64,000 bases of DNA from Candidatus Lustribacter sp. GTDB taxonomy: Bacteria; Vulcanimicrobiota; Vulcanimicrobiia; Vulcanimicrobiales; Vulcanimicrobiaceae. The stretch is taken from NCBI GenBank assembly GCA_965277805.1, contig OZ255842.1, positions 3,424,001-3,488,000 of the forward strand. Direction: 5' to 3'. The notes beneath the pieces are model-generated. The model ran no database searches. It was not told the origin of the DNA and saw nothing but the letters and a program-made list of their open reading frames with translations. Both the position numbers and the translations under genes were made by a program. Positions 50,101 to 62,615 of this stretch are shown here, one piece after another (position 1 is the first letter of the stretch; each line of letters opens with the position of its first letter).

Positions 50101-53100
50101 GCCGCCGCCGCCGATCGACTGCGCGAGGATGCCGTTGCTGAAATCGCCGGTGCCCGTATTGATGCCGGCGCCGGTGTTGGTCACGCTGACGTTGCCGGCC
50201 TTGGCCCCGCCGCCGCCCGAGCCGCCGAAGCTCAGCGCCGCGTCGCTGCCGTTCGCGAGCGTTCCGGCCACCGAGAAACCGCCGTTGCCGCCGCCGCCGC
50301 CGACCGATTGCGCCTCGATGCCGTTCGAGCTCGAACCGTTGGTGATAATCGTCGCGTCGCTCGTCACCGTGACGTCGTTGCCGGTGCTGCCCATGCCGCC
50401 GTTGCCGCCGAGGCTGACCGACGCGCCGGACCCGTTGCTCAGGTCGCCGGCCACGCTGAAGCCGCCGTTGCCGCCACCGCCCCCGAGCGATTGCGCGAGG
50501 ATACCATTGGAACTCGAACCGCCGGTCTGAATCGTCACCGCGGTCAGGCTGGTTACGCTCGCCGTGCCGGCTGCGCCGCCGGTGCCGCCCTTGCCGCCGA
50601 GCGAGATCGCCGCGCTCGTCCCGTTCGAGAGCGTTCCGGCCACGGAGAAACCGCCGTTACCGCCGCCGCCACCCAGCGACTGCGCGGCGATGCCGTCGGA
50701 CTCGTTGCCCATCGTCTGGATGTTGCCGGTGCTCGTGACCGCCACGTTACCCGATGCGCCCGCCGCGCCGCCCGTACCACCGGCGCTGATGCTGGCGGCG
50801 CTGCCGTTGGCGCCGGTTGCCGCGATGCTGAAACCGCCGTTGCCGCCGCCGCCGCCGATCGACTGTGCGAGAATGCCGTCGGACTGATCCAAGCGCGTGC
50901 TGATGTTCCCGACGCTGACGACCGTCACGGCGCCGGCCGTGGTGGAGGTGGCGCTGCCTCCGCTGCCGCCGAGGCTGAACGACGCCGAAGGAGCGTTGCT
51001 CGCGCCGCCGGCGATGCTGAAGCCGCCGTTACCGCCGCCTCCCGCGATCGATTGCGCCTGAATGCCGTCGGATTGGACGCCGCTCGTCGAGATGTCGCCG
51101 TAGTCGGTGACGCTGACCGCGCCCGACGACGCGCCGCCGCCGCCGCTTCCGCCGATGGAAAGGTTGATGCTGTTGCCGGCCGACAAGCCGCCCGCGACGC
51201 TGAAGCCGCCGTTGCCGCCGCCGCCGCCGATCGATTGCGCTTGGATCCCCGCCGCGCTGCTGCCGCCGGTCACGATGTCGACCGAACTCGTGGTCGAGCC
51301 GTTGGTGACGGTCACGGCGTCCGACGTGCCGCCGGCGGCGCCGCTGCCGCCCAGGCTGACGCCGATCGTGCGCCCGCTGCCCGAGATGTCGCCCACGACG
51401 CTGAAGCCGCCGTTGCCGCCGCCGCCGCCGACCGACTGCGCCTGGATGCCGACGGAACCGTTGCCGCCGGTGGTGATCGCCGTATTGCTGGTGACGGTGA
51501 CCATGCCTGCGGTGCCGCCGCTCGCGCCCGAACCGCCCAGCGCGACCGAAACGTTGGTGCCGTTGCCGATGCTGCCGCCGACGGCGAAGCCGCCGTTGCC
51601 GCCGCCGCCACCGATCGATTGCGCCTGGATGCCGGCCGAGCTGTTGCCGCCCGTGACGATCGCAGCGGCGCCGCCGTTGGCGCCTTGGCTTGCGACGGTG
51701 ACGTTCCCGGCCGTACCGCCGGCCGCGGCGCTGCCGCCGAGTGCGACCGACGCCGATGATCCGGTCGTCACGGTGCCGTCGACCGCGAAGCCGCCGTTGC
51801 CGCCGCCGCCGCCGATCGATTGCGCCTGAATGCCCGACGAGTCATCGCCGACCGTCATGATGATGCCGTCGTTGCCGGGCGCGGTGCTGGTCGTGGTGCT
51901 GTTGACGACGACGTTGCCGGCGTCGCCGCCCTGCGCACCGCCGCCGCCGAACGCCAATCCGGCTGCCGACCCGGTCGTCAGCGCGCCGTCGACAGCGAAG
52001 CCGCCGTTACCGCCGCCGCCGCCGATCGACTGCGCGAGAATGCCGGCCGAGTTGCTGTCGCCGGTCCCGATGTTGCCGGTGCTCGTCACCTTGACGAACT
52101 TGCCGTCGTCGCCCAAGCCGCCGTTGCCGGCAAATGCGACCGTGCCGGTCACGCCGGTCGTCAGAGCGCCGGCGACCGCGAAGCCGCCGTTGCCGCCGCC
52201 GCCGCCGATCGACTGCGCCGCGATACCATTCGATTCCACGCCGTCGGTCATGATCGAGCCGACGCTGGTGACCATGACCATACCGGCGTTCGAACCGGCG
52301 CCGCCCGTGCCGCCGAAGCTCGCGCCGAGGGCCGGACCGCCGGCGGCGACCGCGTCGACGCTGAAGCCGCCGTTGCCGCCGCCGCCGCCGATCGATTGGG
52401 CAAGGATGCCGTTCGAACGGTCGCCGTCGGTGATGATGTTGGAGATGACCGCCGAGCTGCCGCTGGTCACGAACACGTTGCCGGCGGTCGCGCCCGAGCC
52501 GCCTTTGCCGCCGAACGCGGCCGAGAGCGAACCGCTGCCGCTGAGCGAGCCCGTAATACTGAAGCCGCCGTTACCGCCGCCGCCGCCCAGCGATTGCGCG
52601 AGGATGCCGTTGGAATCGCTGCCGTCGGTCTCGATGCCGCCCAGGCTGTGCACCGTCACGGTCGAGGCGGTGCCGCCGTTGGAACCCGAACCGCCGAACG
52701 AAACCGACGCGGTGCCGCTGGTCGAGAGGCTGCCGGCGATCGCAAAGCCGCCGTTGCCGCCGCCGCCGCCGATCGATTGCGCCGCGATGCCGTCGGCATG
52801 CGAACCGTCAGTTTGGATCGTACCGGTGCTGGTCACGCTGACCGCCATGGCGTTGCCGCCGCCGCTGCCCGATCCGCCGAAACCCACCGAACCGGTGAGG
52901 CTCGTACCGGCAGAGGCCGCGATCGAGAAACCGCCGTTGCCGCCGCCGCCGCCGATCGATTGCGCTTGGATGCCGTCGGAGAAATCGCCGCTGCCGTCGG
53001 CGCCGGTATGGATGTTGGCCGCGCTGACGACCGTCACGGTGCCGGCGTCGGAACCGGTGCCGGCCTTGCCGCCGAAGCCGACCGCGATCGCCGGACCGCT

Positions 53101-56100
53101 GCCGGCCGATCCGGCCACGCTGAAGCCGCCGTCGCCGCCGCCGCCGCCGATCGACTGCGCTAAGATGCCGTCCGACCGCGAGCCGTCCGTCTGAATGATG
53201 GTGCCCGCCTCGGTAACCGAGACGTTGTTGGCGGCGCCACCGCCGGCGCCCTTACCGCCGAAGCCGAGACTCAACGCGGCGCCCGAACCGATGCTGCCGG
53301 CGATGCTGAAGCCGCCCGAACCGCCGCCGCCGCCGAGCGACTGCGCCTCGATGCCCGACGAGTCATCGCCGGTCGTGCCGATGCTGCCGGTGCTGCTGAC
53401 GGTCACCGTCGAGGCGGTGCCGCCCACCGAGCCGCTGCCGCCGAAGCTGAGGTTTGCGGTCGATCCCGCCGCCAGGCCGCCCGAGATCCCGAAGCCGCCG
53501 TCGCCGCCGCCGCCGCCGATCGACTGCGCCAAGATGCCGACGGAGTGCTCGCCGTCGGTCGTGATCTGTCCGGTACTGGCGACGAACACGGACAGGCCCG
53601 CTCCGCCGTCGCCGCCGCTGCCGCCGAAATTGACGTTGCCGCCCGCCGATAGCGTCGCCGAGGCCGCGACGCTGAAGCCGCCGTCGCCGCCGCTGCCGCC
53701 GATCGACTGGGCCCGAATGCCGTCGGAGTCGTCGTCCTGGCCGCTGCCCGTACCGGTTGCGATCGCGCCGTAGCTCTCCACGCTCACGGCAGCCGCATCC
53801 GAGCCGGCCGCTCCGGCGCCGCCGAAGCTCGCGCCGAGGGAGTAGCCGCCGCTCGCATTGGCCGCAACGCTGAAGCCGCCCGAGCCGCCGCCGCCGCCGA
53901 TGCTCAAGGCCGTGATGCCGTCCGACCGATCGCCCGACGTCGTAATGTTCGAGAGAACCGTATTGAGGTACGTGCCGGGGCCGGTCGATATCGTTCCGTT
54001 ATTGACGGTCACCGCCCCCGAGGTGGCGCCCGTTCCGCCCGCGCCGCCGAAGGACGCGCTCAGGCCGGCGTCGCCGGACGCTGTCCCGGCAATGCTGAAG
54101 CCGCCGCTGCCGCCGCCGCCGCCGACCGACTCCGCGTAGATACCCGATGAGTCATTGCCCAAGGTCGTGATGGAGCCGTAGGTGGCAACGGTGACCGCGC
54201 CGCCTTGCGCGCCGGTCCCGGCACCGCCGCCGAAGGTCAGGCTCGCCGATGCTCCGCCGCTGAGCGCACCCGCGGCGCTGAAGCCGCCGTTGCCGCCGCC
54301 GCCGCCGAGCGACTGCGCGAGGATGCCCGCCGAGTTGTCGCCGGCCGTGCCGATGTTGCCGACGCTGAACACCGAGACGCCCATGGCGACGCCGCCGCCC
54401 GACCCGTGTCCGCCGAAGCTCAGTGAACCGGACGCGTACGTGCTGGCGCTGCCGTCGATGCTGAAGCCGCCGTTACCGCCGCCGCCGCCGATCGACTGCG
54501 CGATGATCCCGCTCGAGGAGTTGTCGTCGGCGATGCCGTTGTCGACCAGCGCCGGAAGCGGGCCGCCCTCGAGCGACGTGGCGTACGGATTGTCGCCGGT
54601 ATAGATGTTGCTGTAGTTGGTGACCGTGACGGTACCGGCATTGCCGCCGGCCGCGCCGGAGCCGCCGAAGCTGCCGCTGATCGCGCCGTTCGCCACCGCG
54701 CCGGCCACGCTGAAGCCGCCGTTGCCGCCGCCGCCGCCGATCGATTGGGCGACGATGCCGGACGAACGCGAGCCGTCGGTCATGATCGTTCCCTCGAACG
54801 CCGTGCTGCCGTTGCCCGCGACGACGTTGCCGGCCGACGATCCCGTGCCGCCTGCACCGCCAAATGAAAGCGCTGCCGACGCGCCGGTGCTGAGGCCGCC
54901 GGCCACGCTGAACCCACCGTTTCCACCGGCGCCGCCGATGGATTGTGCAAGGATCGCGTCCGAATCGTCGCCGTAAGTGCCCATGTTGCCGACGTTGGTA
55001 GCGGTCACCGCCATGCCCTTACCGCCCGATGCGCCGCTGCCGCCCAGCGAGAGGCCGGCGCCGGCGTCGATGGTCAGGTTGCCGGCGATGCTGTAGCCGC
55101 CGTTGCCGCCGCCGCCGCCGATCGATTGCGCCTCGATGCCGTTGGCCTGCTCGCCCGCCGTGAAGATCGAACCGACGTTGGTGACGGTGACGATGCCGGC
55201 GTCGTCGCCGGAGCCGCCCTTACCGCCGATCGAGCCGGCAGCGCCGACCCCGAACGACGCGGATCCGGCGATGCTGAAGCCGCCCGAGCCGCCGCCGCCG
55301 CCGAGCGACTGCGCTTGAATGCCGTTGGAACTGTCGCCGTTGCCGGTGAACTTGCCGGTGGCCGGGTCGATGCCGGTCATGATGTTCGTGAAGCTCGTGA
55401 CCGTCACGTTGCCGGCGGTCGATCCGGTGCCGCCGCCGCCGCCGAGGGACGCGGCCAGCGACGCTTCACCCGAGCCGGCCGCGCCCACGCTGAAGCCGCC
55501 GTCGCCGCCGCCGCCGCCGATCGACTGCGCGAGGATACCGTCGGACCGCTGGCCCTCGGTGGCGATCATCGCTTCGCTGCCCGCGGTGCCGCTCGAAACG
55601 GTCACGGCACTACTAAATGAACCAGGACCGCCGGTGCCGCCGAACGAGGCGGCGAGTGCCGCACCCGCGCTCACCGCTGCCGAAATGCTGAAGCCGCCCT
55701 GACCGCCGCCGCCGCCGATCGATTGGGCGAGGATGCCGGCCGAGTCGTCGCCGGTCGTGATCACCGAGCCGGTGCTGCTAACGGTCACCGAGCTCGCCTG
55801 ATTACCCGTGCCGCCGGCGCCGGCGAAACTCAGGCTGCCGCCCGCCGCGGCCGCCAGCGAGCCGGCGACGGAGAATCCGCCGTTGCCGCCGCCGCCGCCG
55901 ATCGACTGGGCAGCGATGCCGTTGGCGCCCTCGCCGTTGGTCTTGACGGTGCCGTTGCTGTTCACCGTGACGTCGAGGCCCTTACCGCCGCCGCCGCCCG
56001 AACCGCCGAATCCGACTGCCGCGCCGGCCGTGGCCGAAAGATCGGCACCAACCGCGAAGCCGCCGTTGCCGCCGCCGCCGCCGATCGATTGCGCTAAAAT

Positions 56101-59046
56101 GCCGTCCGAGAAATTGCCCGAGCCGTCCTGGCCCGTCTCGACGTTGCCGTTGCTATAGACGTAGACGGAGCCCGCGTCGTTGCCCGAACCGCCCGCGCCG
56201 CCCATCGAAAGAGCGATGCTGGGACCGACCGAAGCCGCGCCGGCCACGCTGAACCCGCCGCTGCCGCCGCCGCCGCCGATCGACTGCGCGACGATGCCCG
56301 ACGCATACGCGCCGTTCGTCGTGATGTTCGCGGCCGAGCCGAGCCCGTTGTACACGGTGACGGACTGCGCGAATCCGCCGGCGGCGCCGCCGCCGCCGAT
56401 CGCAAACGACGCCGCGCTGCCGCCGCCGAGCGCCGCGCCGACGCTGAGCCCGCCGTTGCCGCCGCCGCCGCCCAGCGATTGGGCGAGGATGCCGTCCGAA
56501 TCGTCGCCGCGGGTCGTGATGCTGTTCGTGCTTTGAACGTAGACGTTATTTGAAGACGCGCCGCTGCCGCCGCTCCCGCCGACCGCGAGCGCCGCGCCCG
56601 ATCCGAACGAGAAGTTCCCGGCCACGCTCGCGCCGCCGTCGCCGCCGCCGCCGCCGATCGACTCCGCAACGATGCCCGAGGAGCGATTGCCGACCGTCGT
56701 GATCGCGCCGCCGCTGCTGAAAATCGTGACCGTGCTGGCCGTCTGGCCGCTGCCGCCCGATCCGCCGACGCCGACGGCCGCCGAGGCGCCCGCGCTGAAG
56801 TCGAGCGAGGCCGCCAGCCCGCCGGTCCCGCCGCCGCCCCCGACGGACTGCGCGAAGATGCCGTTCGAATCGTCACCCGTAGTGCCGATGCCGGCCGCGT
56901 TAAACACCGTGACCGATTGCCCGATGCCGCCCGCCGCTCCCGAACCGCCGTAGGCGAGGCCGGCCCCGACCGCCGAGATCGTGGCCGCAACGCTGAAGCC
57001 GCCGTTGCCGCCGCCGCCGCCGATCGATTGGGCGAGGATGCCGTTGGAGTCGGCGTTCGCGGTGTTGATTTGACCGCTGTTGTTAACGTAGACCGTGTTG
57101 CCGTCGCCGCCGTGCAGGCCGGATCCGCCGACCGCAAGTCCGCCCGCGGCGAGCCCGAGGCTGCCCGAAATCGCAAAGCCGCCCGAACCGCCGCCGCCGC
57201 CGATCGACTGCGCGAAGATGCCGTCGGACAACTGGCCGCTGGTGGAAATGGAATTACTGTTGATGACGTTGACCGTGCCGGAGTCGCCGCCGGCGCCGCC
57301 CGTCCCGCCGACGGAAATCGCGACGGCCGCCAAACCGACCGCAGCCGAGAAAGCGAAACCACCGTTGCCGCCGCCGCCGCCGACCGACTGCGCTTGGATG
57401 CCGCTCGAGCGGTCGCCGAACGTCTGGATGCTGGCCGAACCGGTCGTGTCGACGAACACGTTGCCGCCGACGCCGCCGGAACCGGCGTTGCCGCCGATCG
57501 CAATCGCGCCGCTAAACCCGGCGCTCGCGGCGCTTCCCCCATTGCCGCCGCCGCCGCCGACCGACTGCGCCAGAATCGCCGACGAATCGTTGGAACGGGT
57601 CTCGAGATTGCCGGAGTTCGTGACGTTGACGTTGCCGCCGTCGCCGCCTTCACCGCCGCCGCCGCCGACCGAGAACCAGCCGGTCGCGCTGCCGCCGTTG
57701 CCGCCGCCGCCGCCGACCGACTGTGCGAAAATAGCCTGAGCTCCGTACGTGGCCTGCTGGCCGTTGACGAACAGACTCGATCCCGTCGCCCAAGTCGTGA
57801 CGTTGGCGGAATTGGTGACGTTGACGGTGCCGGCGCCGCTCGTCGACGAGCCGGTGCCGCCGACCGCAAACGCGCCGCTGCCGTTGCCGCCGTCGCCGCC
57901 GCCGCCGCCGACCGACTGCGCGAAAATGCCCTTGGACGCCACGCCGTAGGTGACGATCGAACCTTGCGTGTTGACGACAACGTCGCCGCCCGCGCCGCCC
58001 GTTTGGGCCGCGCCGCCGAATCCGACCAAGCCGGAACCGCTGCCGCCGGAGCCGCCGCCGCCGCCGACCGATTGCGCCAAAATCCCGTACGAACCGTTGT
58101 TGGTCGTTTCGATGCTCGACCCGGCATCCATGATCGCCGTCGCGTTACCGCCCGAGCCGCCGTTGGCGCCGTTGCCGCCGAACGATGCGAGACCCGCAAC
58201 GCTGCCGCCGCTGCCGCCGAATCCGCCGACGCTCTGCACGAACATGCCGAAGGCGGAGACGCCCTCGGTCAAAATCGAACCGCCGGTCTGCAATTCGCCG
58301 GTGGCGCTGCCGCCAGACTGCGCGTTGCTGCCCGAACCGGCGCTTCCATAGAAGAGACCAAAGCCGCCGCCGCCGTTGCCGCCGCCGCCGCCGACCGACT
58401 CGATGAACATCCCGTGGGCGCCGTCGCCGTAGGTCTGGATGGCGGTCTGGACTTGGACGTTGATGCTGCCGCCGAGCCCGCCCGCCGCTCCGCCGCCGCC
58501 GTCGCCGACGAAGCCGTCACCATCGCCGCCGTTGCCGCCGACGCCGCCGTCGCTCGAGCCGAAAACGCCGTAGCCTTTCGTCCCGGTCGTCGTTATCCCG
58601 AGCAGGTTGCTCAAGTTGATCGTGGCCGTCAGCGAGCCGCCGTTGCCGCCCGATCCGCCGTCGGCACCGCCGCCGCCGAGATAGTACGTGCCGCCGCTGC
58701 CGCCGTTGCCGCCGTTGTCGAAGATCGCGAAACCGCTGCCCGACGACGTGAAAATTGCGGTGCCGGGATTGCCGCTGGAATAGTTGACCGGCGAGCCCGG
58801 CGATGCGCCGTTACCGCCGCCGCCGCCGCTGTCGGGCGAAACGAACAATGCGCCGTCGCGGCCGTTGCCGCCGTCGCCGCCGCTGTCGTTGATCGACTGC
58901 GCGCCGATGCATGAAATCGTGTAACCGTTCGGATTCGGCAGCGTCGAGCAGTCGGTTGGATTCGCTTGCGCAGCGCGCGGCGAACATGCTGCGATCAGCG
59001 TTGCAACGACGACCGCAACCGTTACCGCAAACGATTTATGTTTCAC
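35176..59046 (-). CDS. giant glycine-rich repeat autotransporter (7956 aa)
   Basis: Uninterrupted 23.9-kb ORF; N-terminal signal peptide; AQS(I/V/L)GGGGG repeats; helical linker then about 280 aa of amphipathic strands ending in Phe (INLEQRF), as expected for a type V secretion beta-barrel. Confidence 0.9.
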   Translation of the reverse strand: MKHKSFAVTVAVVVATLIAACSPRAAQANPTDCSTLPNPNGYTISCIGAQSINDSGGDGGNGRDGALFVSPDSGGGGGNGASPGSPVNYSSGNPGTAIFTSSGSGFAIFDNGGNGGSGGTYYLGGGGADGGSGGNGGSLTATINLSNLLGITTTGTKGYGVFGSSDGGVGGNGGDGDGFVGDGGGGAAGGLGGSINVQVQTAIQTYGDGAHGMFIESVGGGGGNGGGGFGLFYGSAGSGSNAQSGGSATGELQTGGSILTEGVSAFGMFVQSVGGFGGSGGSVAGLASFGGNGANGGSGGNATAIMDAGSSIETTNNGSYGILAQSVGGGGGSGGSGSGLVGFGGAAQTGGAGGDVVVNTQGSIVTYGVASKGIFAQSVGGGGGDGGNGSGAFAVGGTGSSTSGAGTVNVTNSANVTTWATGSSLFVNGQQATYGAQAIFAQSVGGGGGNGGSATGWFSVGGGGGEGGDGGNVNVTNSGNLETRSNDSSAILAQSVGGGGGNGGSAASAGFSGAIAIGGNAGSGGVGGNVFVDTTGSASIQTFGDRSSGIQAQSVGGGGGNGGFAFSAAVGLAAVAISVGGTGGAGGDSGTVNVINSNSISTSGQLSDGIFAQSIGGGGGSGGFAISGSLGLAAGGLAVGGSGLHGGDGNTVYVNNSGQINTANADSNGILAQSIGGGGGNGGFSVAATISAVGAGLAYGGSGAAGGIGQSVTVFNAAGIGTTGDDSNGIFAQSVGGGGGTGGLAASLDFSAGASAAVGVGGSGGSGQTASTVTIFSSGGAITTVGNRSSGIVAESIGGGGGDGGASVAGNFSFGSGAALAVGGSGGSGASSNNVYVQSTNSITTRGDDSDGILAQSLGGGGGNGGLSVGAALGGGSAASFAIGGGGAAGGFAQSVTVYNGLGSAANITTNGAYASGIVAQSIGGGGGSGGFSVAGAASVGPSIALSMGGAGGSGNDAGSVYVYSNGNVETGQDGSGNFSDGILAQSIGGGGGNGGFAVGADLSATAGAAVGFGGSGGGGGKGLDVTVNSNGTVKTNGEGANGIAAQSIGGGGGNGGFSVAGSLAAAAGGSLSFAGAGGTGNQASSVTVSSTGSVITTGDDSAGILAQSIGGGGGQGGFSISAAVSAGAALAASFGGTGGPGSFSSAVTVSSGTAGSEAMIATEGQRSDGILAQSIGGGGGDGGFSVGAAGSGEASLAASLGGGGGTGSTAGNVTVTSFTNIMTGIDPATGKFTGNGDSSNGIQAQSLGGGGGSGGFSIAGSASFGVGAAGSIGGKGGSGDDAGIVTVTNVGSIFTAGEQANGIEAQSIGGGGGNGGYSIAGNLTIDAGAGLSLGGSGASGGKGMAVTATNVGNMGTYGDDSDAILAQSIGGAGGNGGFSVAGGLSTGASAALSFGGAGGTGSSAGNVVAGNGSTAFEGTIMTDGSRSSGIVAQSIGGGGGNGGFSVAGAVANGAISGSFGGSGAAGGNAGTVTVTNYSNIYTGDNPYATSLEGGPLPALVDNGIADDNSSSGIIAQSIGGGGGNGGFSIDGSASTYASGSLSFGGHGSGGGVAMGVSVFSVGNIGTAGDNSAGILAQSLGGGGGNGGFSAAGALSGGASASLTFGGGAGTGAQGGAVTVATYGSITTLGNDSSGIYAESVGGGGGSGGFSIAGTASGDAGLSASFGGAGGTGATSGAVTVNNGTISTGPGTYLNTVLSNITTSGDRSDGITALSIGGGGGSGGFSVAANASGGYSLGASFGGAGAAGSDAAAVSVESYGAIATGTGSGQDDDSDGIRAQSIGGSGGDGGFSVAASATLSAGGNVNFGGSGGDGGAGLSVFVASTGQITTDGEHSVGILAQSIGGGGGDGGFGISGGLAAGSTANLSFGGSGSVGGTASTVTVSSTGSIGTTGDDSSGIEAQSLGGGGGSGGFSIAGSIGSGAALSLGFGGKGAGGGAANNVSVTEAGTIIQTDGSRSDGILAQSIGGGGGDGGFSVAGSAGSGPAIAVGFGGKAGTGSDAGTVTVVSAANIHTGADGSGDFSDGIQAQSIGGGGGNGGFSIAASAGTSLTGSVGFGGSGSGGGNAMAVSVTSTGTIQTDGSHADGIAAQSIGGGGGNGGFAIAGSLSTSGTASVSFGGSGSNGGTASTVTVHSLGGIETDGSDSNGILAQSLGGGGGNGGFSITGSLSGSGSLSAAFGGKGGSGATAGNVFVTSGSSAVISNIITDGDRSNGILAQSIGGGGGNGGFSVDAVAAGGPALGASFGGTGGAGSNAGMVMVTSVGSIMTDGVESNGIAAQSIGGGGGNGGFAVAGALTTGVTGTVAFAGNGGLGDDGKFVKVTSTGNIGTGDSNSAGILAQSIGGGGGNGGFAVDGALTTGSAAGLAFGGGGAQGGDAGNVVVNSTTTSTAPGNDGIIMTVGDDSSGIQAQSIGGGGGNGGFAVDGTVTTGSSASVALGGSAAAGGTAGNVTVASQGANGGAAAIVTGGNSSAGIQAQSIGGGGGNGGFAVGGSIGNGTNVSVALGGSGASGGTAGMVTVTSNTAITTGGNGSVGIQAQSVGGGGGNGGFSVVGDISGSGRTIGVSLGGSGAAGGTSDAVTVTNGSTTSSVDIVTGGSSAAGIQAQSIGGGGGNGGFSVAGGLSAGNSINLSIGGSGGGGASSGAVSVTDYGDISTSGVQSDGIQAQSIAGGGGNGGFSIAGGASNAPSASFSLGGSGGSATSTTAGAVTVVSVGNISTRLDQSDGILAQSIGGGGGNGGFSIAATGANGSAASISAGGTGGAAGASGNVAVTSTGNIQTMGNESDGIAAQSLGGGGGNGGFSVAGTLSNGTSAAISLGGKGGTGGAAGTASVTSLTAVTIQTGGSSSNGILAQSLGGGGGNGGFSVAGDLSNGSGASVSLGGNGGMGSTGNDVTVTSDATIITNGSSSNGIEAQSVGGGGGNGGFSVAGTLANGSDAALSFGGSGGGGAKAGNVSVTNTGAGINTGTGDFSNGILAQSIGGGGGNGGFSVAGAGSTGKAASVTMGGSGGGASDAGNVTVISGYGTVADSIVTGGMQADGILAQSIGGGGGNGGFAVGASGSSGFNAAVTLGGSGALGGAAGDVTVAANTQVQTTNAFSAGIAAQSIGGGGGNGGFAVSGSVSNASSAALALGGSGGGGAIAGDVDLSSLQSISTGGDQSVGLLAQSIGGGGGNGGFSAAGGVSNGTSADISLGGAGGVGAHSGNVILDSGQAGGVVSITTGGEGSDGILAQAIGGGGGSGGMSVAAGLATTRVVPLSEGGTGGGGKDGGTVDVESYSTIATTGDQSAGLAAQSIGGGGGAAGMAIEGKLTKTGIGAGMGFGTGGAGGNSMAVTVGSFSQITTTGDESDGILAQSIGGGGGYGGIGVLGDVESDMGILMGGNSTDSGGNAGTVTVTSTGSIGTTGSVSNGILAQSIGGGGGDGGITVKFAGTTSGGAASALSLGLGRSGGAAGGADDVTVTSTGALIMTTGASSNGIEAQSVGGGGGNGGLVATGSATPGYAVGFSLGGSGGNGGDSGNVTVTNSSMLVTTNDISDGILAQSLGGGGGNGGFAIQAIASGSRTGQVAIGGSGGAASNGHDVTVTNSGNITTSGMQSVGIAAQSIGGGGGNGGFVIAGTISNGAQSAGLTLGGSGGGGGSAGDVTVSNTASIQTALDGSHGIEAQSIGGGGGNGGFSVAGGISDGSSFRVALGGSGGSGGIAGDVIVNSGTTTSTTTITTAGLNSIGILAQSVGGGGGAGGFGAAASAGTGATLDLGIGGTGGTGGDSKTVTVSNDSGIGTLGDYSAGIMAQSIGGGGGDGAFSIAASATLKTSGAMGIGGSGGTAGNAGAVTVTNSALISTGGAHSDGIEAQSVGGGGGDGGFTVAAALTAANGAGISLGGAGSGGGNAGAVSVTSTNSISTLDDESNGIFAESVGGGGGSGGMAITGGITAGSGNIGLAFGGNGSGGGSAAAVNVTSGTSTATALTTTGAHSDGILAQSIGGGGGDGGMSVQGGISSGASIGFSMGGSGAGGGVAGTVNVTDSSAVATTGDFSAGIAAQSIGGGGGSGGLSISGNASNKVTGSFAIGGGGGTASNGEAVGVTVSANIVTTGEHADGISAQSIGGGGGDGGFSVAGTISTGTGGAGLTMAGSGAGGGVGGTVAVNDIASVQTNGNDSHGIFAQSIGGGGGAGGMAVTGGISAGSGQIGLAFGGAGGAGGNASAVSVTTGQNVTGTEILTGTSTTGTHSDGILAQSVGGGGGDAGMAISGGIGVGTQAAFSLGGSGGAGGNAGTVTVVNNALIATQQEYSHGIAAQSIGGGGGDGGMAITGTVGSGLAADIGVGGSGGTAGNASAVSVTGTSQITTAGDHSDGILAQSVGGGGGDGGMAVSGSISKAANTAFTLGGSGGGGGVAGNVAVTQLGSIQTAGDTSDGILAQSLGGGGGSGGFALDGTFSGTGSLSLAFGGKGGTGGDAGTVTVLNSGATPTTGEILTGGLHADGILAQSIGGGGGDGGLSVAGTMDNGTGIAFSMGGSGGIAGAGKAVAVTNQSSITTTGDLAAAIAAQSIGGGGGSGGLAISGSVGSPSAADAASVDVAIGGGGGAGTNAGNVTVSNTGQITTGGTDSYGVFAQSAGGGGGSGGLSGTLAAATGSDAKNVSVSIGGTGGSGGAAGNVTVANNGEIQTTGVAGTAVYAQSVGGGGGDGGYGLAVDLGASTGAVDLSVALGGHGGSGGVAGDVTASNSGIISTTANNAEGIFAQSLGGGGGNGGMSVSAGVSVSTTGKQLGISLGGSGGTGNNAGNVLVDNTGTIVTTGDKASAVDAESIGGGGGNGGMSIAGAIGGTNLTVALGGSGGDAGNAGTVTVTNAGDISTGNALTGTGTQSYGIFAQSLGGGGGNGGLAFAGSAGVGGNAQLSISVGGSGAGGGTGNAVSVSDSGNIFTSGAQGNGIFAQSIGGGGGNGGMAFGASLLAGGDNVALSVAVGGTGGSGNTSSTVTVEHDSGVISTTGDQAIGILAQSIGGGGGTGGLSGTLAASAGADAKNIGISVGGSGGSGAASGDVTVNNDGQVYTNGLAASAIVAQSIGGGGGDGGYGISAQLGVSTGATDLSVALGGSGGTGGTAGDVGVTNTGTLSTYGDNANGIQAQSIGGGGGTGGMAISAAISVSPTGKQLGVTLGGNGGSGNDAGNVSVTNTGTIVTVGNTASGIDAESLGGGGGDGGMAISGAIGGTNLTIALGGSGGDAGNAGNVSVTNTGDIGTGSTTSGTQSYGIFAQSLGGGGGNGGMAFSGSAGAGSDASAEISVALGGTGGGAGTAGNVDVNDNGNIVTSGDGAHGIFAQSLGGGGGNGGFTFAGSLLAGSAGGANTTMTLAFGGSGGAGNTSGTVTVLHQGGIQTSGDGAYGIDAESIGGGGGNGGFSGALAAGTGAESKSISATFGGAGGAGSASSDVSVTNTGDIITTGSAATGVDALSLGGGGGDGGFGLAASIGPSSGSTNLSFAFGGSGGGGGTSGNVSVNNTGGISTQGNNALGILAQSIGGGGGDGGMSIAADASVVTSARQLSLAFGGSGGTGNDSGTVGVTNSGTIVTQGDNAAAIDAESIGGGGGRGGMAIAGALGGMNLTLAFGGSGGDAGNAGAVTVNNTGDIGTGNAANGTGLDSYGIFAESLGGGGGNGGASFSGAASAGSDQVQASLALGGAAGGGGTAGDVGVTDNGTIVTSGAGAHAIFAQSLGGGGGNGGMSFAGDASLGGANIALTIAIGGGGGAGNTSGNVSVTHGGDIATSGQGAEGVLAQSIGGGGGNGGFSGTLAAGTGADAKNVAITVGGAGGSGSASGNVTVGNTGNIVTTGQAATGVDAESIGGGGGNAGFGLAMALGTSSGSTNVSLALGGKGGSAGTAGDVNVTNSGTISTTGDNALGVLAESIGGGGGNGGFSVAADITAAASSKQLGVSIGGAGGTGNDAGTVGVTNAGTIVTTGNAAAAIAAESLGGGGGNGGMAISGSLVGSNINLALGGSGAGAGNAGNVNVSNAGNIETGNATANSGTNSYGVFAQSLGGGGGNGGLSIGADAGNGSAQIGLSIGGSGGAAGTGGDVTVADSGVIITNGTDAHGIFAQSVGGGGGNGGAGFAASAGTSNANALDIALGGGGGAGTNSGNVTVTHDTGDIDTLGQGANGIYAQSLGGGGGTGGFSGTLAAGTGASTKHVAIDIGGTGGDGGAAGNVSVSNTSNVVTTGSAANGIVAESQGGGGGDGGFALAVDLSNGAGATNASMSFGGNGGSGGSAGTVTVNNTGIVSTSTDNSTGIFAQSLGGGGGNGGFAVAAGISTSQTAKQLALSLGGSGGTGNDASGVTVTNSGTVVTTGDNAIGISAQSQGGGGGNGGLAVSGALGGMNIALGLGGSGGDAGNAGNVSVTNTGDVGTGDATNGTGTNSYGIFAESLGGGGGNGGLAISADAGSSTDAKAEVAISVGGTGAAGGTGGDVNVDDSGNVVTSGNGAHAIFAQSIGGGGGNGGGSVSGSVAKTTTDVNTVALSLGGSGGTGNTGGDVTVTHDTGGISTSGDGAYGIDAQSVGGGGGTGGFAATLAAGTGTDTKHVAVALGGTGGTGGAAGDVTVQNDGEVYTSGAASTGIYAQSLGGGGGDAGFALGVAIGPTMGAVNVSVALGGTGGTGGVGGNVNVTNTGNVITNTDNAEGINAESIGGGGGNGGVSVTADVSNNAANKNLSLSLGGSGGTGNNAGNVNVNNTGAVSTVGDNAAGIDAESVGGGGGRGGLSVAAGISGMNMSVALGGSGGGAGNGGDVTVNNSGDVLTGSYDPTTDVITGTKSYGIEATSIGGGGGNGGMSFAAGAGSGSNKAQAEIGVSVGGSGGAGGTGGNVAVNADGNVLTIGAEAHGIFAQSIGGGGGNGGFSFAGSSLRNTDKGGANVSVAMAVGGGGGTGNDGGTVTVTHDTGQIVTIGDGAMGIFAQSIGGGGGNGGGSRAFTQLSDAKKCDAGSTTCGTQNWNLAASIGGSGAGASNGGAVTVTNGGQISTSGGDAADIFAQSVGGGGGTGGDGNNGLIGPALNALVGITGVSVPSSDGSRRSEQTVGGAQTEAATTPAPATQSVQQSVYQNLQLNVGGSGGSSGNGADVNVTNSGALFATGDGAQAIFAQSVGGGGGVGGAGSTGVKGGIGIGGSGGSSGNGGDVAVTNTGMITTGGAAGYGVFAQSIGGGGGAAGNINRGLGKLDLGSGIAVGNTGGGGGNGGKVTVNNTGDIVTAGAGAEGIFAQSIGGGGGVAGSSGNSLTATSAVAALALAGSAGAAGAGGDVNVVETGNITTSGANADGIFAQSVGGQGKGGNVNVTVIGSVVALGTGSDGVVAQSTGGTVAATQSVATNVRTVQGSRVGINNTTVTPQDASATSNSGNVTVTITDGTTIQAGPGAVGVRLVGGANNMLINDGTIMTSDGLNGTAVSDTDGNNTIQNNGYLVGSLALGTGKSDLTNTKGYVAGTTLGLGTGTFTNLGQFSVGGTSNVGVTTLTGSFVQFGGDSLVDLDLSHKIADQLNLNAVASIGGNIDLTLLNIPTALPGTYKFDIVTAQGGLTAPNVVLNAPVSAIATYALSTVNNTDLRLTWTINYSPNFGLDGDSLGYSRSMFGNYLAAIQNAGSNTAFGNLISSIFAIPDGATLANLYSHISPGSLAPIEFTTLTSSQQFANRMMSCGYIASSCEWGSLDSFALNQSVTANTVGVGSLGAGFNYGSEQAIGRGWSLGGGIQYEQHSMTLNGGVASASGDLLQGGLFVGHRTAHGTSVNAGVTYGWEDDSTQRNVNYPDPSIVSLGRLQSSVIGTHLRLAHEYDRSTTAFTPYVDLSATRINVMNDLEHGNAGFLTANLAGHGDTFTAGQAGINIDPRAGIGNTGFTPSLRLGMTQSLGNPQTTVAGSLIGAPAGVQNFELPSKFDKTAFDVAPSLSTNQRPGQMNVRLSGDYRVSGRSQGLTASINLEQRF
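37130..58600 (-). repeat. coding tandem repeat, unit about 61-68 aa: GIxAQSIGGGGGNGG-(strand)-(strand)-GGxGGxGGxxGxVxV...IxTxGxx
   Basis: Recurring gccgccgccgccgatcga(c/t)tgcgc on the + strand roughly every 190 nt; on the order of 110 units (estimated, not counted). Confidence 0.95.
38160..45240 (-). repeat. higher-order repeat: six copies of a six-unit block (about 1.16 kb)
   Basis: Marker (T/A)LAAxxGxxxK recurs near 45145, 43987, 42823, 41665, 40513 and 39346. Confidence 0.85.
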
Positions 59047-62000
59047 GGCGTCACGACGATGTTGATCGGCAACGTATGCGCGACGCCGCTCGGTCCGGTT
59101 GCAACGAGGCTGATGTTATACGTGCCCTGTTGCGTGTTGCCCGACGGTCCCGACGACGTTCCGGGCACGAGCGTACCGGCAATGACCGTGCCCGGCGCAA
59201 TTGCCGACGGCGTCACGACGCCGGCCGGCAGCTGATTCGTCGAGACCGCGCCGACTTGCCCCGTACCGGCGACGATGTCGCCCGTGCCGTTTTGCAGATT
59301 CGGTGTGCCTTGACCGGGGCCGGGCGTTCCGCCGTTGCCGCCGGTTGCCGGCGTCGGCGTCGGGAGCGACGGACCGCTGCTGCCGAAACCATTACCGCTG
59401 CCGACACCGGGCAACGTGCTTCCGCCACCACCGCCGCCGCACGCCGCCAATACGGCGACGCTCAAGATCGCTGCGCCCATCGCAACTTTGCGATTGCGGC
59501 GCCACAAGAATGCGAACAGCGTGAAGATGCCGCCGGCAATCGGAAGCGCGGCATGGCGAATCGCGCGTGCCATCGGCGTGACGGAACCGCTGTTCGATCC
59601 CGTCGTCGTCAGCGTCACGTTCACGCTCACGGGCGTCGTACCGGAAACCGTGACCGGCGATGACGTGCACACGGCTCCCGTCGGCAGTCCGGAACACGTG
59701 ACCGTTACCGTACCGTTGAATGAAGACGCGCCCGTCAACGTGACCGGAATCGTCATGCTCTGTCCGGCGCCCAGCGTTTGCTGGTTCGCGATCGTCGAAC
59801 CGATGGCGAAATCCGTGACGTTGCCGTTGGTGACGTTGAACGTAACACCCGACGACATCGACGATTGATTTTCGGAATCGCCACCGTAATTTGCGGTGAT
59901 CGTATGCGATCCGGCAGCTAGCGACGTGGTGGTCAACGTTGCGCGCGCGTGCCCGTCGAGCGACGCCGTGCCGATCGTCGTGCCGCCGTCCTTATATGTA
60001 ACGGTGCCGGTCGGGACATCGGGGACGCTGCCGGAGATCGCCGCAGTGAACGTTACCGGCGATCCGAGTGCAGCGCTGCTCGACGTCGCCGAAAGCGCCG
60101 TCGTCGTTGCGAACTGTGCAACCACGAACCCGACGATCGCTGAAGTGCTCGCACCATCATTGCTGTCGCCGCCGTACGTCGCGGTCAAATTGTGCGTGCC
60201 CGCTCCGCTGAACTGCGTGGTAATCGCTGCCGAGCCGCTGGCGAGCGTTTGCGTCGAGCCGATCTGCGTGCCGCCGTCGAAAAACTTGACGGTGCCTCCA
60301 TTGGGAGGCGATGAGCCCGTAACCGTCGCCGTTAGCACGACGTTCTGGGTCGGCGCAGCGGACGACGGTGCAACGCTCAATCCGGTCGAGCTCAAGCTCG
60401 TGCCGACGTTCTCGATCACGGATCCCTGAGCGGCCGTATTGTTCGTGTCACCGCTATACGCGGCGGTAATCGTGTACTGACCCGTGTTGAGGGTCGACAG
60501 CGACACGCTGGCCGAGTTGCCCGAGAGCGCCGGCGTCCCGAGCGGCGTTCCGCCGGGATTTTTCGTGAACGCAACCGTTCCCGTAGGCGACGCGCCGGTA
60601 CTCGTCACCGTCGCGGTGAAGGTGACGTTCGTGAACGGCGTCGTCGGGTTCGGGACCGCAACAACGTTCGTCGTTGCCGTCGCTTTCGAAGCGGTGAAGG
60701 TCGCAGTCGCCGTTGACCCGCCGTCTGCGCCACTATACGTTGCAACGATCGTGTGCGACGTGCCGGACAGATTGCTCACCGTCACCGATGCTTGGCCGCC
60801 CGAGAGGGCCGGGTTTCCGATGCCGCTGCTGTTGTCGGTGAACTGTACGTTGCCGGTCGGCGTCGAGCCGTCCGAAGCGGTGACGACGGCGGTGTAGGTC
60901 GGATTCGTTCCGAGGAACGGCGTCGCCGGCGAAATCGTCAGTGCGGTCGTCGTCGACGCGTTGCCGACGACCACGGTCTGCGCCGATGACCCCGAGCCGT
61001 TGAAACTCGTCGTCGCAGCGTAGGTCGCGGTGATGCTGTGACTGCCGGTCGGCGTCGCGGTCCAATTGTAGGTCGCTTGCCCGGCGCCGTTGACCGGTCC
61101 GGTACCCAGCGTCGTCGCGCCGTCGGAGAACGTCACCGTTCCGGTCGTCACGGGTGTCGTCGTCCCACTTATGGAGACCGTGGCCGTCAGCAGGTCCGGG
61201 GAGTTCAACCCGGGCGCCGTCGTTGCTGCGGCGAGCGTCGTCGCCGTATTGGCGGGCGTGATGGTGAACGCGCCCATCGTGCCGTGCGATGCGGCGAAGT
61301 TGATCGAACTCGAATAGCAGGCGGTGATCGTGTGCGAACCCGCGCCGAGTTGCGTCGTGACCAGCGTCGCCGTTCCGTTGGCGAGCGGCGCATTTCCAAG
61401 TACGTTCGACGAGCAATTGCTCGAGCCGTCGGCGAACGCAACGCTGCCGCCGGGGACGCCCGCCGATGACGTCACGCTCGCCGTGAGCGAAACGTTGGAA
61501 CCGGCCGTCGTCGTCGGAGGCGGCGTGCCGGCCGTCGTCGTGGTCGCCGCCTGGTTGATGGTCACGGTGAATGGCGACGCGGCGCTGGACGCGGAAAACT
61601 GCGAGACCATCGGCGGCACGTACGTCGCCGTGATCGAGTGCGTCCCGCCGCCGAGTGCGGTCGTCGCTACCGAAGCGCTGCCGGCGCTAAGCGGGCCCGA
61701 TGCGATGACCGTGACATTCGGACTCGTGCCTTCAGTAAAGTTGACGGTGCCGCTCGGCGTGCCGCCCGAGCTCGTCACGGTCGACGAGAGCGTCACGCTG
61801 CTTCCGAACGTCTGCGTTGTCGGATTCGCGCTGCCGGTGGTCGTGGTGCCCGTTCCAACCGTCACGTTGATCGTGGTCGCAAACACGTACGGCGAGCCGT
61901 CGGAGTATTGGAACGCAATTGCGTGAACGCCGGCTTGCGAAATGCCGGTCGTCGTGAACGTCATGACGCCGCCGGCTCCCACCGCGACACCGGTCGAGAG

Positions 62001-62615
62001 CGTCGTGCTGGTGAGGTTGTCGAAAATCGAAATGTTTCCGGTGGCCACGGCGGCGCCGGTTGCGGGCGACGTCGCGTGACACGTCAACGTTACGCTTTGC
62101 GACGGCGCGATCGTCGAGGATGACGCCGAACATGCGATGTTCACCGGCATGTCGACCGTATAGCTGATCGACGTGGAGCTGGCGGCGTTGTTCGCGTCGC
62201 CGGCATACGACGCCGTGATCGTGTGCGCTTCGGAGATCAGCGTCGTGGGCGGATTCGATGCGCTCGGAGCCGGCTGCGTGCCGGCCGACAAACTCGTTGT
62301 CGCGGGCGTCGTGAAGACGCCGCTGGCGACCGCGCCCGACCCGAGCGTCGTCGACGTCGTCGTGTCGGTAATCGTCGTCGTGGCCGTTCCGGTAACGACG
62401 ACGCCGGTCGACGTGACCTTGGTCGTCGCGGTGAACTTGACCGACGTGCCGTAGCCGTCGGGCGATCCCGGAGTGGCGGTGAGCGTCGTGGTGGTGGGGA
62501 CCGCCGCTGCCGAAGCGATTGCCGTCTGCGAGAGGCACGCTAGGGTGAGCGCAAACAAAACCCTGCATAGAGTTTCGCAAAACCGCGTAAGCGATTGCGT
62601 CGAAACCAAGAACAC
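59043..62615 (-). CDS. Ig-like (Big_3_5-type) repeat surface protein with internal hydrophobic segment and lipobox
   Basis: About nine TTT.L...G.H.ITA.Y.GD domains, then LPIAGGIFTLFAFLWRRNRKVAMGAAILSVAVLAACGGGGGG. Stop overlaps the autotransporter start (GTGA). Exact start uncertain (GTG 62615 or TTG 62609). Confidence 0.88.
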   Translation of the reverse strand: MFLVSTQSLTRFCETLCRVLFALTLACLSQTAIASAAAVPTTTTLTATPGSPDGYGTSVKFTATTKVTSTGVVVTGTATTTITDTTTSTTLGSGAVASGVFTTPATTSLSAGTQPAPSASNPPTTLISEAHTITASYAGDANNAASSTSISYTVDMPVNIACSASSSTIAPSQSVTLTCHATSPATGAAVATGNISIFDNLTSTTLSTGVAVGAGGVMTFTTTGISQAGVHAIAFQYSDGSPYVFATTINVTVGTGTTTTGSANPTTQTFGSSVTLSSTVTSSGGTPSGTVNFTEGTSPNVTVIASGPLSAGSASVATTALGGGTHSITATYVPPMVSQFSASSAASPFTVTINQAATTTTAGTPPPTTTAGSNVSLTASVTSSAGVPGGSVAFADGSSNCSSNVLGNAPLANGTATLVTTQLGAGSHTITACYSSSINFAASHGTMGAFTITPANTATTLAAATTAPGLNSPDLLTATVSISGTTTPVTTGTVTFSDGATTLGTGPVNGAGQATYNWTATPTGSHSITATYAATTSFNGSGSSAQTVVVGNASTTTALTISPATPFLGTNPTYTAVVTASDGSTPTGNVQFTDNSSGIGNPALSGGQASVTVSNLSGTSHTIVATYSGADGGSTATATFTASKATATTNVVAVPNPTTPFTNVTFTATVTSTGASPTGTVAFTKNPGGTPLGTPALSGNSASVSLSTLNTGQYTITAAYSGDTNNTAAQGSVIENVGTSLSSTGLSVAPSSAAPTQNVVLTATVTGSSPPNGGTVKFFDGGTQIGSTQTLASGSAAITTQFSGAGTHNLTATYGGDSNDGASTSAIVGFVVAQFATTTALSATSSSAALGSPVTFTAAISGSVPDVPTGTVTYKDGGTTIGTASLDGHARATLTTTSLAAGSHTITANYGGDSENQSSMSSGVTFNVTNGNVTDFAIGSTIANQQTLGAGQSMTIPVTLTGASSFNGTVTVTCSGLPTGAVCTSSPVTVSGTTPVSVNVTLTTTGSNSGSVTPMARAIRHAALPIAGGIFTLFAFLWRRNRKVAMGAAILSVAVLAACGGGGGGSTLPGVGSGNGFGSSGPSLPTPTPATGGNGGTPGPGQGTPNLQNGTGDIVAGTGQVGAVSTNQLPAGVVTPSAIAPGTVIAGTLVPGTSSGPSGNTQQGTYNISLVATGPSGVAHTLPINIVVTP

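Follow-up and report, generated by a model that had tools for sequence, protein, structure and literature searches.

Why should a membrane hairpin of two helices, closed by a lipoprotein-type cysteine, split the last Ig-like domain of an exported protein? Such is the arrangement found in the window analysed here, a stretch of 64,000 nucleotides, where a minus-strand open reading frame (59046-62615; GTG start, stop codon 59043-59045) is translated into 1190 residues containing, letter for letter, every string quoted in an earlier sequence-only reading. An N-terminal Sec-type signal peptide (about aa 1-36, 62508..62615, on the minus strand as are all features below), visible as the hydrophobic run RVLFALTLACLSQTAIASAAA and SP-like in a KD scan, precedes the Big_3_5 Ig-like repeats that make up the stalk (59829..62498, about aa 40-929; Pfam PF16640, E 2.7e-113, eight stretches, best 841-929). 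The split domain comes last, the codon of its first residue, D935, beginning at 59813. Its strands are followed by a spacer, TM1, a basic loop, an h-region, Cys1059, GGGGGG and a linker, and the chain then resumes with GTYNISLVATG...HTLPINIVVTP, up to residue 1190.

This split is not a chance event: a profile of the unsplit domain (102 positions, built from 794 uninterrupted copies) aligns with aa 935-1008 (59592..59813) through no more than its positions 2-78 (i-E 4.6e-14, 40.4 bits), and the same truncation-plus-hairpin is present in 38/38 cassette-bearing proteins examined, all distinct. These residues, about the first three quarters of the domain, form seven strands in the AF2 model (pLDDT 81-90). 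Uninterrupted domains pass straight into the GTY...H strands, as the sequence-only reading had stated and as is seen in P0012; in relatives with a single C-terminal TM the last strands precede the helix, whereas in cassette proteins they come after the hairpin. Here the last two beta-strands occupy about aa 1162-1190 (59046..59132), and a tail-strand HMM matches 1158-1188 (5.5 bits, i-E 9e-4 with Z=1). AlphaFold, the check initially proposed, predicts that 1164-1173 and 1179-1189 fold (pLDDT 78-89 in one run, 71-78 in another) although the linker stays below 50 (31-45 in both runs). Supplied as a separate chain, these strands were placed on the N-part of the domain with an ipSAE of 0.58 vs 0.01 for the best control, a prediction hinting that they may pack there, as had been suggested.

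The hairpin begins after the spacer GSNSGSVTPMAR (aa 1009-1020, 59556..59591; 5/13 columns invariant in the family alignment). TM1, HAALPIAGGIFTLFAFLW (aa 1021-1038, 59502..59555; AF2 helix 1014-1040), would be a stop-transfer helix; its L-P-x-x-G belongs to a [hydrophobic]-P-x(1,3)-G motif found in TM1 of 20/34 cassettes and in TM2 of a single one. The loop RRNRK (aa 1039-1043, 59487..59501), probably cytoplasmic, has a net charge of +2 to +7 in all 34. TM2, VAMGAAILSVAVLAA (aa 1044-1058, 59442..59486; AF2 helix 1042-1058), is a signal-peptide-like h-region (14-20 aa across the 34) with the lipobox L-A-A at its end.

There stands Cys1059 (codon tgc, 59439..59441; LAAC), a candidate for both diacylglyceryl attachment and the LspA +1 position. 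Its conservation, which the sequence-only reading had made decisive, is complete: it is invariant in family alignment A2, and a Cys closes the second helix in 39/39 stored entries (38 distinct sequences), in hairpins found without asking for one. Its surroundings are lipobox-like, with A/G/S at -1 in 36 of the 38 proteins and Gly at +2 in 34, and the genome encodes Lgt, LspA and Lnt. Lipidation of the internal lipobox, with cleavage by LspA, may be envisaged; yet Arg occupies -1 in the remaining two relatives, a point against cleavage being obligatory. Were cleavage to occur, the N-terminal piece would retain its own two-helix hairpin, so it does not follow, contrary to the earlier proposal, that the lipid by itself would fasten the stalk to the membrane. 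That proposal is supported in part, by the split, the predicted fold of the last strands, the invariant Cys and the presence of the enzymes that would process it.

The 1190-residue protein stands apart on three counts. Its nearest relative among public sequences carries the label Eremiobacteraeota, and a sample of 150 further genomes from the phylum yielded neither the tail nor the domain; similar tails do occur in Acidobacteria, as the sequence-only reading had said. The Gly6 run and Gly/Pro-rich linker (104 aa, aa 1060-1163; mapped as aa 1060-1161 at 59133..59438) are as conserved as the Ig-like domain itself, with 45/99 invariant columns vs 29/77 in the Ig strands, and 57-74% vs 51-55% identity to three distant homologues. 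Finally, the stop codon overlaps (GTGA) the GTG start of a downstream gene lying outside the cassette (35176..59046, minus strand), coding for a 7956-aa Gly-rich autotransporter with PF03797 (Autotransporter beta-domain, E 1.7e-18) in its last 1000 residues; relative L021, 94% identical, has the same overlap.

That no mechanism of this kind had been characterised holds insofar as neither experimental work on such anchoring nor the term 'invert_tail' was found in the literature searched; the module itself is recognised. NCBIfam has a model, NF058595 ('invert_tail', lipo-invert putative C-terminal anchoring domain), which the canonical tails match, and the kind is thereby already catalogued. The 1190-residue protein reaches 20.4 bits, below the 37-bit cut-off, and the part of the model matching the h-region also matches ordinary lipoprotein signal peptides of the same genome. 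Compared with the canonical form, its tail is a divergent version of this putative anchor, tethered by a long linker.

The window's exported Ig-like protein, P0001, is encoded at 59046-62615 (-) and translates into 1190 residues. It opens with a hydrophobic, signal-like segment, continues with eight Big_3_5 stretches in a Pfam scan (E 2.7e-113) and ends in an Ig-like domain that is split by a hairpin of two hydrophobic segments. On the same minus strand, this last domain starts at D935 (59813) and runs up to ...VNVTLTTT. A spacer of 12 residues follows, then TM1 (HAALPIAGGIFTLFAFLW), which carries L-P-I-A-G, then the basic loop RRNRK and the h-region of the second segment, TM2 (VAMGAAILSVAVLAA), which leads to Cys1059 (codon tgc, 59439-59441). 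After the cysteine come six glycines and a Gly/Pro-rich stretch, and the chain closes with its C-terminal strands, GTYNISLVATGPSGVAHTLPINIVVTP, which begin at G1164 and precede the stop codon at 59043-59045. The sequence-only reading had described precisely this anatomy, a split domain around a lipobox cassette, and the translation places every element where it had been located.

An HMM of the unsplit domain (102 positions), made from 794 uninterrupted copies in 151 fetched proteins with the window's family excluded, matches P0001 over residues 935-1008, where the match is confined to positions 2-78 of the model (40.4 bits, i-E 4.6e-14). In each of the 38 distinct cassette proteins the last match to this HMM before the basic cluster stops at position 68-89 of 102, and in 30 of them a second, separate significant match (about positions 70-99) is found beyond the cysteine, at the extreme C-terminus. 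The other eight are five members of the window's family together with P0035, P0072 and P0112. Among relatives with a single C-terminal TM segment (seven comparators, five of them scored), the domain reaches position 85-100 ahead of the helix in all five. P0012 is a case in point, as it combines an unbroken penultimate copy of the domain (...TLTISTLTTTPFGNSTVTINSTAGSLVHSTTVALAV) with a last copy in which the hairpin is inserted between TLTIST and TPAGTFPITVTATSS; the contrast with uninterrupted domains, to which the sequence-only reading had pointed, is present within a single chain. On P0001, an HMM of the tail strands (33 positions) gives a weak match at 1158-1188 (5.5 bits, i-E 9e-4 with Z=1), the best chance match in the six-frame translation of the window (112,251 residues) being 3.7 bits. 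A search of P0001 with hmmscan against Pfam and NCBIfam found nothing beyond Big_3_5; the tail gave He_PIG at E 0.21 only, plus a chance match to SslE. The base domain itself is very common, with 28,992 cluster representatives at E<=1e-3.

Structure predictions were obtained with AlphaFold2 for residues 930-1190. With the alignment of the seven tails P0008-P0014 the model has seven strands (pLDDT 81-90), helices at 1014-1040 and 1042-1058 (pLDDT about 70-81) and, beyond a disordered linker, the two final strands (pLDDT 78-89). With the six-member alignment of the window's own family, the mean pLDDT is lower (52.4), the last strands are at 71-78 and the linker is still without a fold, its pLDDT being 31-45 in both runs. 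The sequence-only reading had expected the terminal strands to complete the sandwich in such a model: the strands are indeed predicted, as judged from pLDDT, and their packing on the domain is putative. When the two parts were supplied as separate chains (residues 930-1009 and 1158-1190), ipSAE was 0.58, while the best of three controls reached 0.01; the result is graded as 'weak support'. At least 90% of the contacts recur between runs, and the partner pLDDT is 76. The ipSAE mark is reached by 58 of 80 solved complexes and by 2 of 110 mismatches; values of 0.60 or less account for both of these mismatches but for just seven of the complexes. Given the high prior from homology, the two-chain result is read as modest support. 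Foldseek against the PDB returned generic Ig/MG-type matches only, none at E<=1e-3, over the first 75-81 columns and without the last strands.

The hairpin and its cysteine recur in many proteins. The last 330 residues of 164 stored proteins were scanned by hydropathy for two hydrophobic segments, with no cysteine required. Such tails were flagged in 41 proteins, 38 of which have hairpins with a short basic connection; the other three were set aside as beta-strand false positives, and P0113, scored as a single segment, proved to be a 39th hairpin. The cysteine, on the conservation of which the sequence-only reading had made its proposal depend, ends the second helix in 39 of 39 entries (38 distinct sequences). 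The rule for a lipobox is [LVI][ASTVI][GAS]C, preceded by a short h-region and, ahead of that, by a basic n-region. P0001 conforms, with RRNRK, VAMGAAILSVAV and L-A-A-C, and 26 of 34 cassettes satisfy a PROSITE-like version of the rule, P0001 among them. These 34 are the distinct cassettes covered by the parser; in the remaining four the -1 residue was read by eye. Position -1 is Ala in 21, Gly in nine and Ser in four of the parsed cassettes, and G, G, R and R in the others, which amounts to a small residue (A/G/S) in 36 of 38 and Arg in two (P0012 and P0141), both of which retain the cysteine. Leu occupies -3 in 20 of the 34 parsed cassettes; Gly is found at +2 in 31 of the 34 (34 of 38 overall) and at +3 in 28. 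The h-regions of the same set are 14-20 residues long, with a net loop charge of +2 to +7. In P0001 the lipoprotein-like signal is internal (residues 1039-1059 of 1190), not N-terminal. A signal-like segment is seen by hydropathy at the N-terminus of 20 of the 38 cassette proteins, the remainder looking N-terminally truncated. The passengers are many and varied: S53 peptidases and FG-GAP, PQQ-like and galactose-oxidase-like proteins, among others, carry the same tail.

Short matches need separate treatment. The canonical tail is matched by eighty proteins of 30-250 residues, whose lengths cluster at 81-88. About 30 metagenome gene calls of that length (P0165-P0200) start from a Met conserved in TM1 (M[WL]LP.GGLALLG..RKKK..) and extend through the rest of the tail. 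These calls are probably forced ATG starts in truncated, Met-poor Ig-repeat ORFs; stand-alone split genes or a real internal start are less likely. In the window's own family, six shorter matches are fragments or frameshifted chimeras, all of which keep the cassette. Two chimeric or frameshifted database entries of this family, P0245 and P0248, show an AMP-binding enzyme N-terminus joined to the tail in one and Arg-rich out-of-frame runs in the other; these oddities look like assembly errors rather than biology.

Tails of this kind are already curated, if uncharacterised. NCBIfam has a curated model, NF058595.1 'invert_tail', with a name that includes 'putative' ('lipo-invert putative C-terminal anchoring domain-containing protein'). 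It matches the seven canonical cassette proteins tested (7/7, 63-135 bits); in P0149, a protein with uninterrupted repeats, it matches at model positions 74-113 only, which are the tail strands. P0001 lies below its cut-off, with 20.4 bits against 37 (model positions 2-85, window 59400-59627), and hmmscan of the whole protein and of its last 265 residues gave no NF058595 match at E<=1. A phmmer search with residues 926-1190 reaches P0008-P0014 (E 3.7e-7 to 2.6e-4), in the alignment of which the cysteine, an Arg and the Cys pair of the domain are invariant; P0012, the sole scanned member of that set, scores 93.8 bits on the model. P0001 has TM1, the basic cluster, TM2 ending in Cys and a Gly run near its C-terminal end, as in the NF058595 type, and it shares the succession that leads from an Ig-like domain cut off near its end through TM1, the Arg/Lys cluster and TM2-Cys to the Gly-rich run; the two C-terminal strands are predicted in P0001, with weak sequence similarity and 104 residues beyond the cysteine. 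It differs in the conserved linker of about 100 residues after the cysteine, where most others have 30-60 residues in all, and in a nearest relative labelled Eremiobacteraeota, not Acidobacteriota. P0001 may be called a long-tethered variant that falls below the threshold and occurs in a phylum where it was not expected. In the literature searched there was no mention of 'lipo-invert', and the same literature gave no description of an internal lipobox in lipoproteins. A preprint on Cys-containing C-terminal tags (Haft 2023, 10.1101/2023.06.07.544157) does not contain Acidobacteri-, lipobox, hairpin, Lgt or invert. The statement of the sequence-only reading that it knew of no characterised mechanism agrees with this literature, in which no experimental work on the tail was found, yet NCBIfam models the canonical form.

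What follows the cysteine sets the window's protein apart. The linker, 104 residues from Cys to strands, has 45 of 99 columns invariant among the six members of the family, and the Ig strands have 29 of 77. Against three distant homologues the identity is 57-74% in the linker and 51-55% in the Ig strands, and further fragments of the family retain cysteine, lipobox and linker. Judged by this conservation, the linker is not a loose spacer. Across cassettes, tether lengths go from 30 to 134 residues, the total length after the cysteine being 30-60 residues in 30 of 38 relatives. In P0011 (residues ~1347-1480) and P0135 (~1514-1640), two unrelated cassette proteins, a whole extra Ig-like domain (..VSVSPRTATPFPGQQQQFNATVTGSTNTAVTWQVNG..) stands between the cysteine and the last strands, so that folded insertions are tolerated at the tether position.

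The host of the gene is an unusual one. Its closest public relative, L021, found as one locus with a single-protein query of genome contigs, comes from a MAG labelled Candidatus Eremiobacteraeota and is 94% identical in the tail; it shares with the window the upstream Peripla_BP_6 gene and the overlapping downstream ORF. Scans of metagenome contigs with the family alignment A2 and with P0179 found no relative. Among 151 sampled genomes of the phylum, none has an NF058595 match over the cut-off, and the seven-tail profile at E<=1e-6 finds the window's genome only, which has one full cassette. In the ESM Atlas, Acidobacteriota is the group with the most look-alike clusters, and the sequence-only reading had named Acidobacteria for similar tails. 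Horizontal transfer was considered from composition and set aside: the gene, at 62-67% GC, does not differ from the remainder of the window (63-68%, Gly-rich autotransporter ORF excluded), hence no signal of recent transfer. The downstream ORF is that autotransporter (35176-59046, -), 7956 residues made nearly entirely of Gly-rich repeats (..GILAQSIGGGGGNGGFSVAG..). It opens with a lipoprotein-like signal, MKHKSFAVTVAVVVATLIAAC (...LIAAC), and closes with an autotransporter beta-domain (E 1.7e-18 for PF03797). In the sequence GTGA, its GTG start codon overlaps with the stop codon of the Ig-protein gene. The counterpart in L021 is only 952 residues long and has no Pfam match, which may be due to repeat collapse or to a break in the MAG.

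The enzymes of lipoprotein maturation are all encoded in the window's genome: Lgt (198.6 bits), LspA (117.5 bits) and Lnt (255.1 bits). With its TM2-Cys-Gly part, NF058595 also matches ordinary N-terminal lipoprotein signal peptides of this genome, two of them in the window (VAGCGGG and AAGCGGG). Tandem ordinary lipoprotein genes occupy 17684-19591 and 19625-20629 (-), with signals ...VVAGCGGGG and ...VAAGCGGG, and the end of the upstream one (..IAVQVTTTTLPVQ, stop) together with the next signal gives, read through the stop codon, a 24-bit match to NF058595. Such a mimic of the cassette hints at a route of origin by fusion of neighbouring genes. As for destination, LolA (Pfam model) was not found in the genome at E<=0.01, and LolCE had no match at the TIGR02212 cut-off (best 74.6 bits against 362). 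Outer-membrane targeting by Lol was therefore dropped from the main explanation, and no outer-membrane destination is argued. It may be recorded, on its own account, that Lgt, LspA, Lnt and a giant autotransporter coexist in this genome with LolA not found and LolCE below its cut-off.

An even chance seems right for the reading in which P0001 ends in a divergent, long-tethered lipo-invert envelope anchor, with lipidation of Cys1059 and cleavage by LspA. Its N-terminal signal peptide would direct the export of the Big_3_5 stalk and of the greater part of the last Ig-like domain. TM1 would then act as a stop-transfer segment, leaving RRNRK in the cytoplasm, and TM2, built like a lipoprotein signal peptide with its n-region, h-region and lipobox, would re-export the last 131 residues, as the positive-inside charge and the helix predictions suggest. 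Lgt would add diacylglycerol to Cys1059, and LspA would cut between Ala1058 and Cys1059. The lipidated small piece would comprise the cysteine, Gly6, the conserved tether of about 100 residues and two strands, and it would be retained because those strands, by homology and prediction, supply the edge that the last Ig domain lacks. The end product would be a nicked domain, with the lipid on the small fragment and the helical hairpin on the large one. Housekeeping enzymes alone would suffice for this, and, the full cassette being the sole one in the genome, general machinery would have to serve. The likeness of TM2-Cys-Gly to ordinary signals, the invariant cysteine and the small -1 residue argue that Lgt and LspA see the site. 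The strongest indirect argument for cleavage is one of architecture: in the hairpin-Cys form only, the two last strands are placed after the anchor, as though the part beyond the cysteine needed to keep its hold unaided. Tethers of 30-134 residues, with even a whole domain among them, are also more in keeping with a flexible lipopeptide than with a rigid insertion in a loop. To be sure, Arg at -1 should block LspA by established lipobox rules, and the two cassettes of 38 that have it count against cleavage; besides, the large fragment would keep TM1, loop and TM2, so that the lipid looks redundant as an anchor. The complete proposal, in which LspA acts on an exported protein at an internal lipobox beyond residue 1000 and the lipopeptide stays bound by donating the last two Ig strands, is less likely than not.

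Those same two Arg cassettes, which still keep their cysteine, lend weight to an uncleaved protein, a serious possibility if short of an even chance. The two helices would form a membrane anchor inserted in a loop of the Ig domain, the chain remaining whole, with Cys1059 unmodified or lipidated without LspA cleavage, at the membrane interface. The predictions show the two helices as a hairpin joined by a basic loop; an insertion with closely spaced ends finds a natural site in a beta-sandwich loop; and the hairpin would anchor the large fragment in any case. However, a plain anchor needs no invariant Cys (39/39), small -1 residue (36/38) or +2 Gly (34/38), plain single-TM relatives leave the domain unsplit (5/5 scored), and tethers of about 100-130 residues or a whole domain after the cysteine remove the geometric reason for a loop insertion. 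TM1 could itself be a substrate: an exosortase-, sortase-, rhombosortase- or CPBP-like enzyme would cut at its L-P-x-x-G / FYAxWLP-like motif with the Arg cluster, and the stalk, released from the inner membrane, would then be retained by the lipidated strand-donor only. The motif is semi-conserved, [hydrophobic]-P-x(1,3)-G being present in 20 of 34 parsed cassettes in TM1 (as L-P-I-A-G in P0001) against one in TM2, with Pro in 27 against five, and the succession of motif, helix and Arg cluster is that of known C-terminal sorting tags, as outlined in PMC11980579. Against this, neither exosortase (PF09721) nor sortase (PF04203) was found in a 95%-complete, single-contig genome, and no candidate for a dedicated sorting enzyme turned up among eight nearby ORFs scanned. 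P0001 lacks a PEP motif as well as LPXTG, its L-P-I-A-G within TM1 being without Thr. Since the genome has this one cassette and the family did not turn up in the 150 other genomes sampled from the phylum, an enzyme kept for a single substrate is unlikely here, and this explanation as a whole is improbable. The tandem lipoprotein genes with their 24 bits across a stop codon give some colour to an artefact, in which an Ig gene with a C-terminal TM segment and a small lipoprotein gene were joined by an assembly or sequencing error, or else to an evolutionary fusion without function. Yet the frame is open, the cassette is present in 25 of the best 150 profile matches, it is retained at 54-94% identity in independent assemblies (P0003-P0007 and L021, also P0246 and P0247), and the piece after the cysteine consists of the missing strands of the preceding domain, not of a protein of its own. 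Assembly error is refuted by the conservation of the cassette, and the artefact explanation, in either form, has almost no chance of being right.

If cleavage and strand donation do take place, they provide a route, using housekeeping enzymes, to a C-terminal lipid anchor held in trans and invisible to lipoprotein predictors that consider the N-terminus only; should LspA cut internal sites, both these predictors and the definition of the lipoproteome need extending. The conserved tether of about 100 residues would place the lipid tens of nanometres from the domain. It could connect a stalk anchored in the inner membrane with another envelope layer, or with the translationally coupled giant autotransporter. 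Because the base domain is common and the passengers are many, one tested member would explain the anchoring of a large class of envelope proteins of soil bacteria, and engineering could make good use of a lipid anchor built on a naturally split Ig domain. The window is a convenient test case, with a single genomic copy, no dedicated sorting enzyme apparent and a long conserved tether that parts the elements cleanly.

Among known systems, MYXO-CTERM/myxosortase and other tripartite C-terminal sorting tags with an invariant cysteine invite comparison. According to PMC11980579, the MYXO-CTERM cysteine stands before the one helix of the tag, which has a cytoplasmic end and is cut by a dedicated CPBP protease. 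Both are C-terminal tags on exported proteins, with an invariant cysteine predicted to be lipidated, a TM helix and an Arg-rich cytoplasmic stretch; P0001 departs from that layout in a cysteine placed after a second helix with 131 residues beyond, in a split domain and in the lack of an evident dedicated enzyme. The signal itself is like that of a classical lipoprotein: a basic n-region (RRNRK), an h-region of 15 residues, L-A-A-C and a Gly-rich 'mature' start, closely resembling the N-terminal signals of the two lipoproteins of the window (VAGCGGG and AAGCGGG). Unlike those of classical lipoproteins, it is internal, behind an exported passenger of 1000 residues and a stop-transfer helix, and the 'mature lipoprotein' would be 131 residues long, only two strands of which would fold, and into the domain of another chain.

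Strand complementation occurs elsewhere. Cleaved GAIN/GPS domains of adhesion GPCRs and SEA domains of mucins stay together in this way, after autoproteolytic cleavage, and pili use donor-strand complementation, by means of the pilus machinery. None of these systems is known to go through the lipoprotein pathway, nor is any homology with the hairpin-Cys tail known. If LspA does cut, the likeness to GAIN and SEA would be one of architecture: a nicked beta-sandwich kept together non-covalently by its last strands, its small C-terminal piece being the one attached to the membrane.
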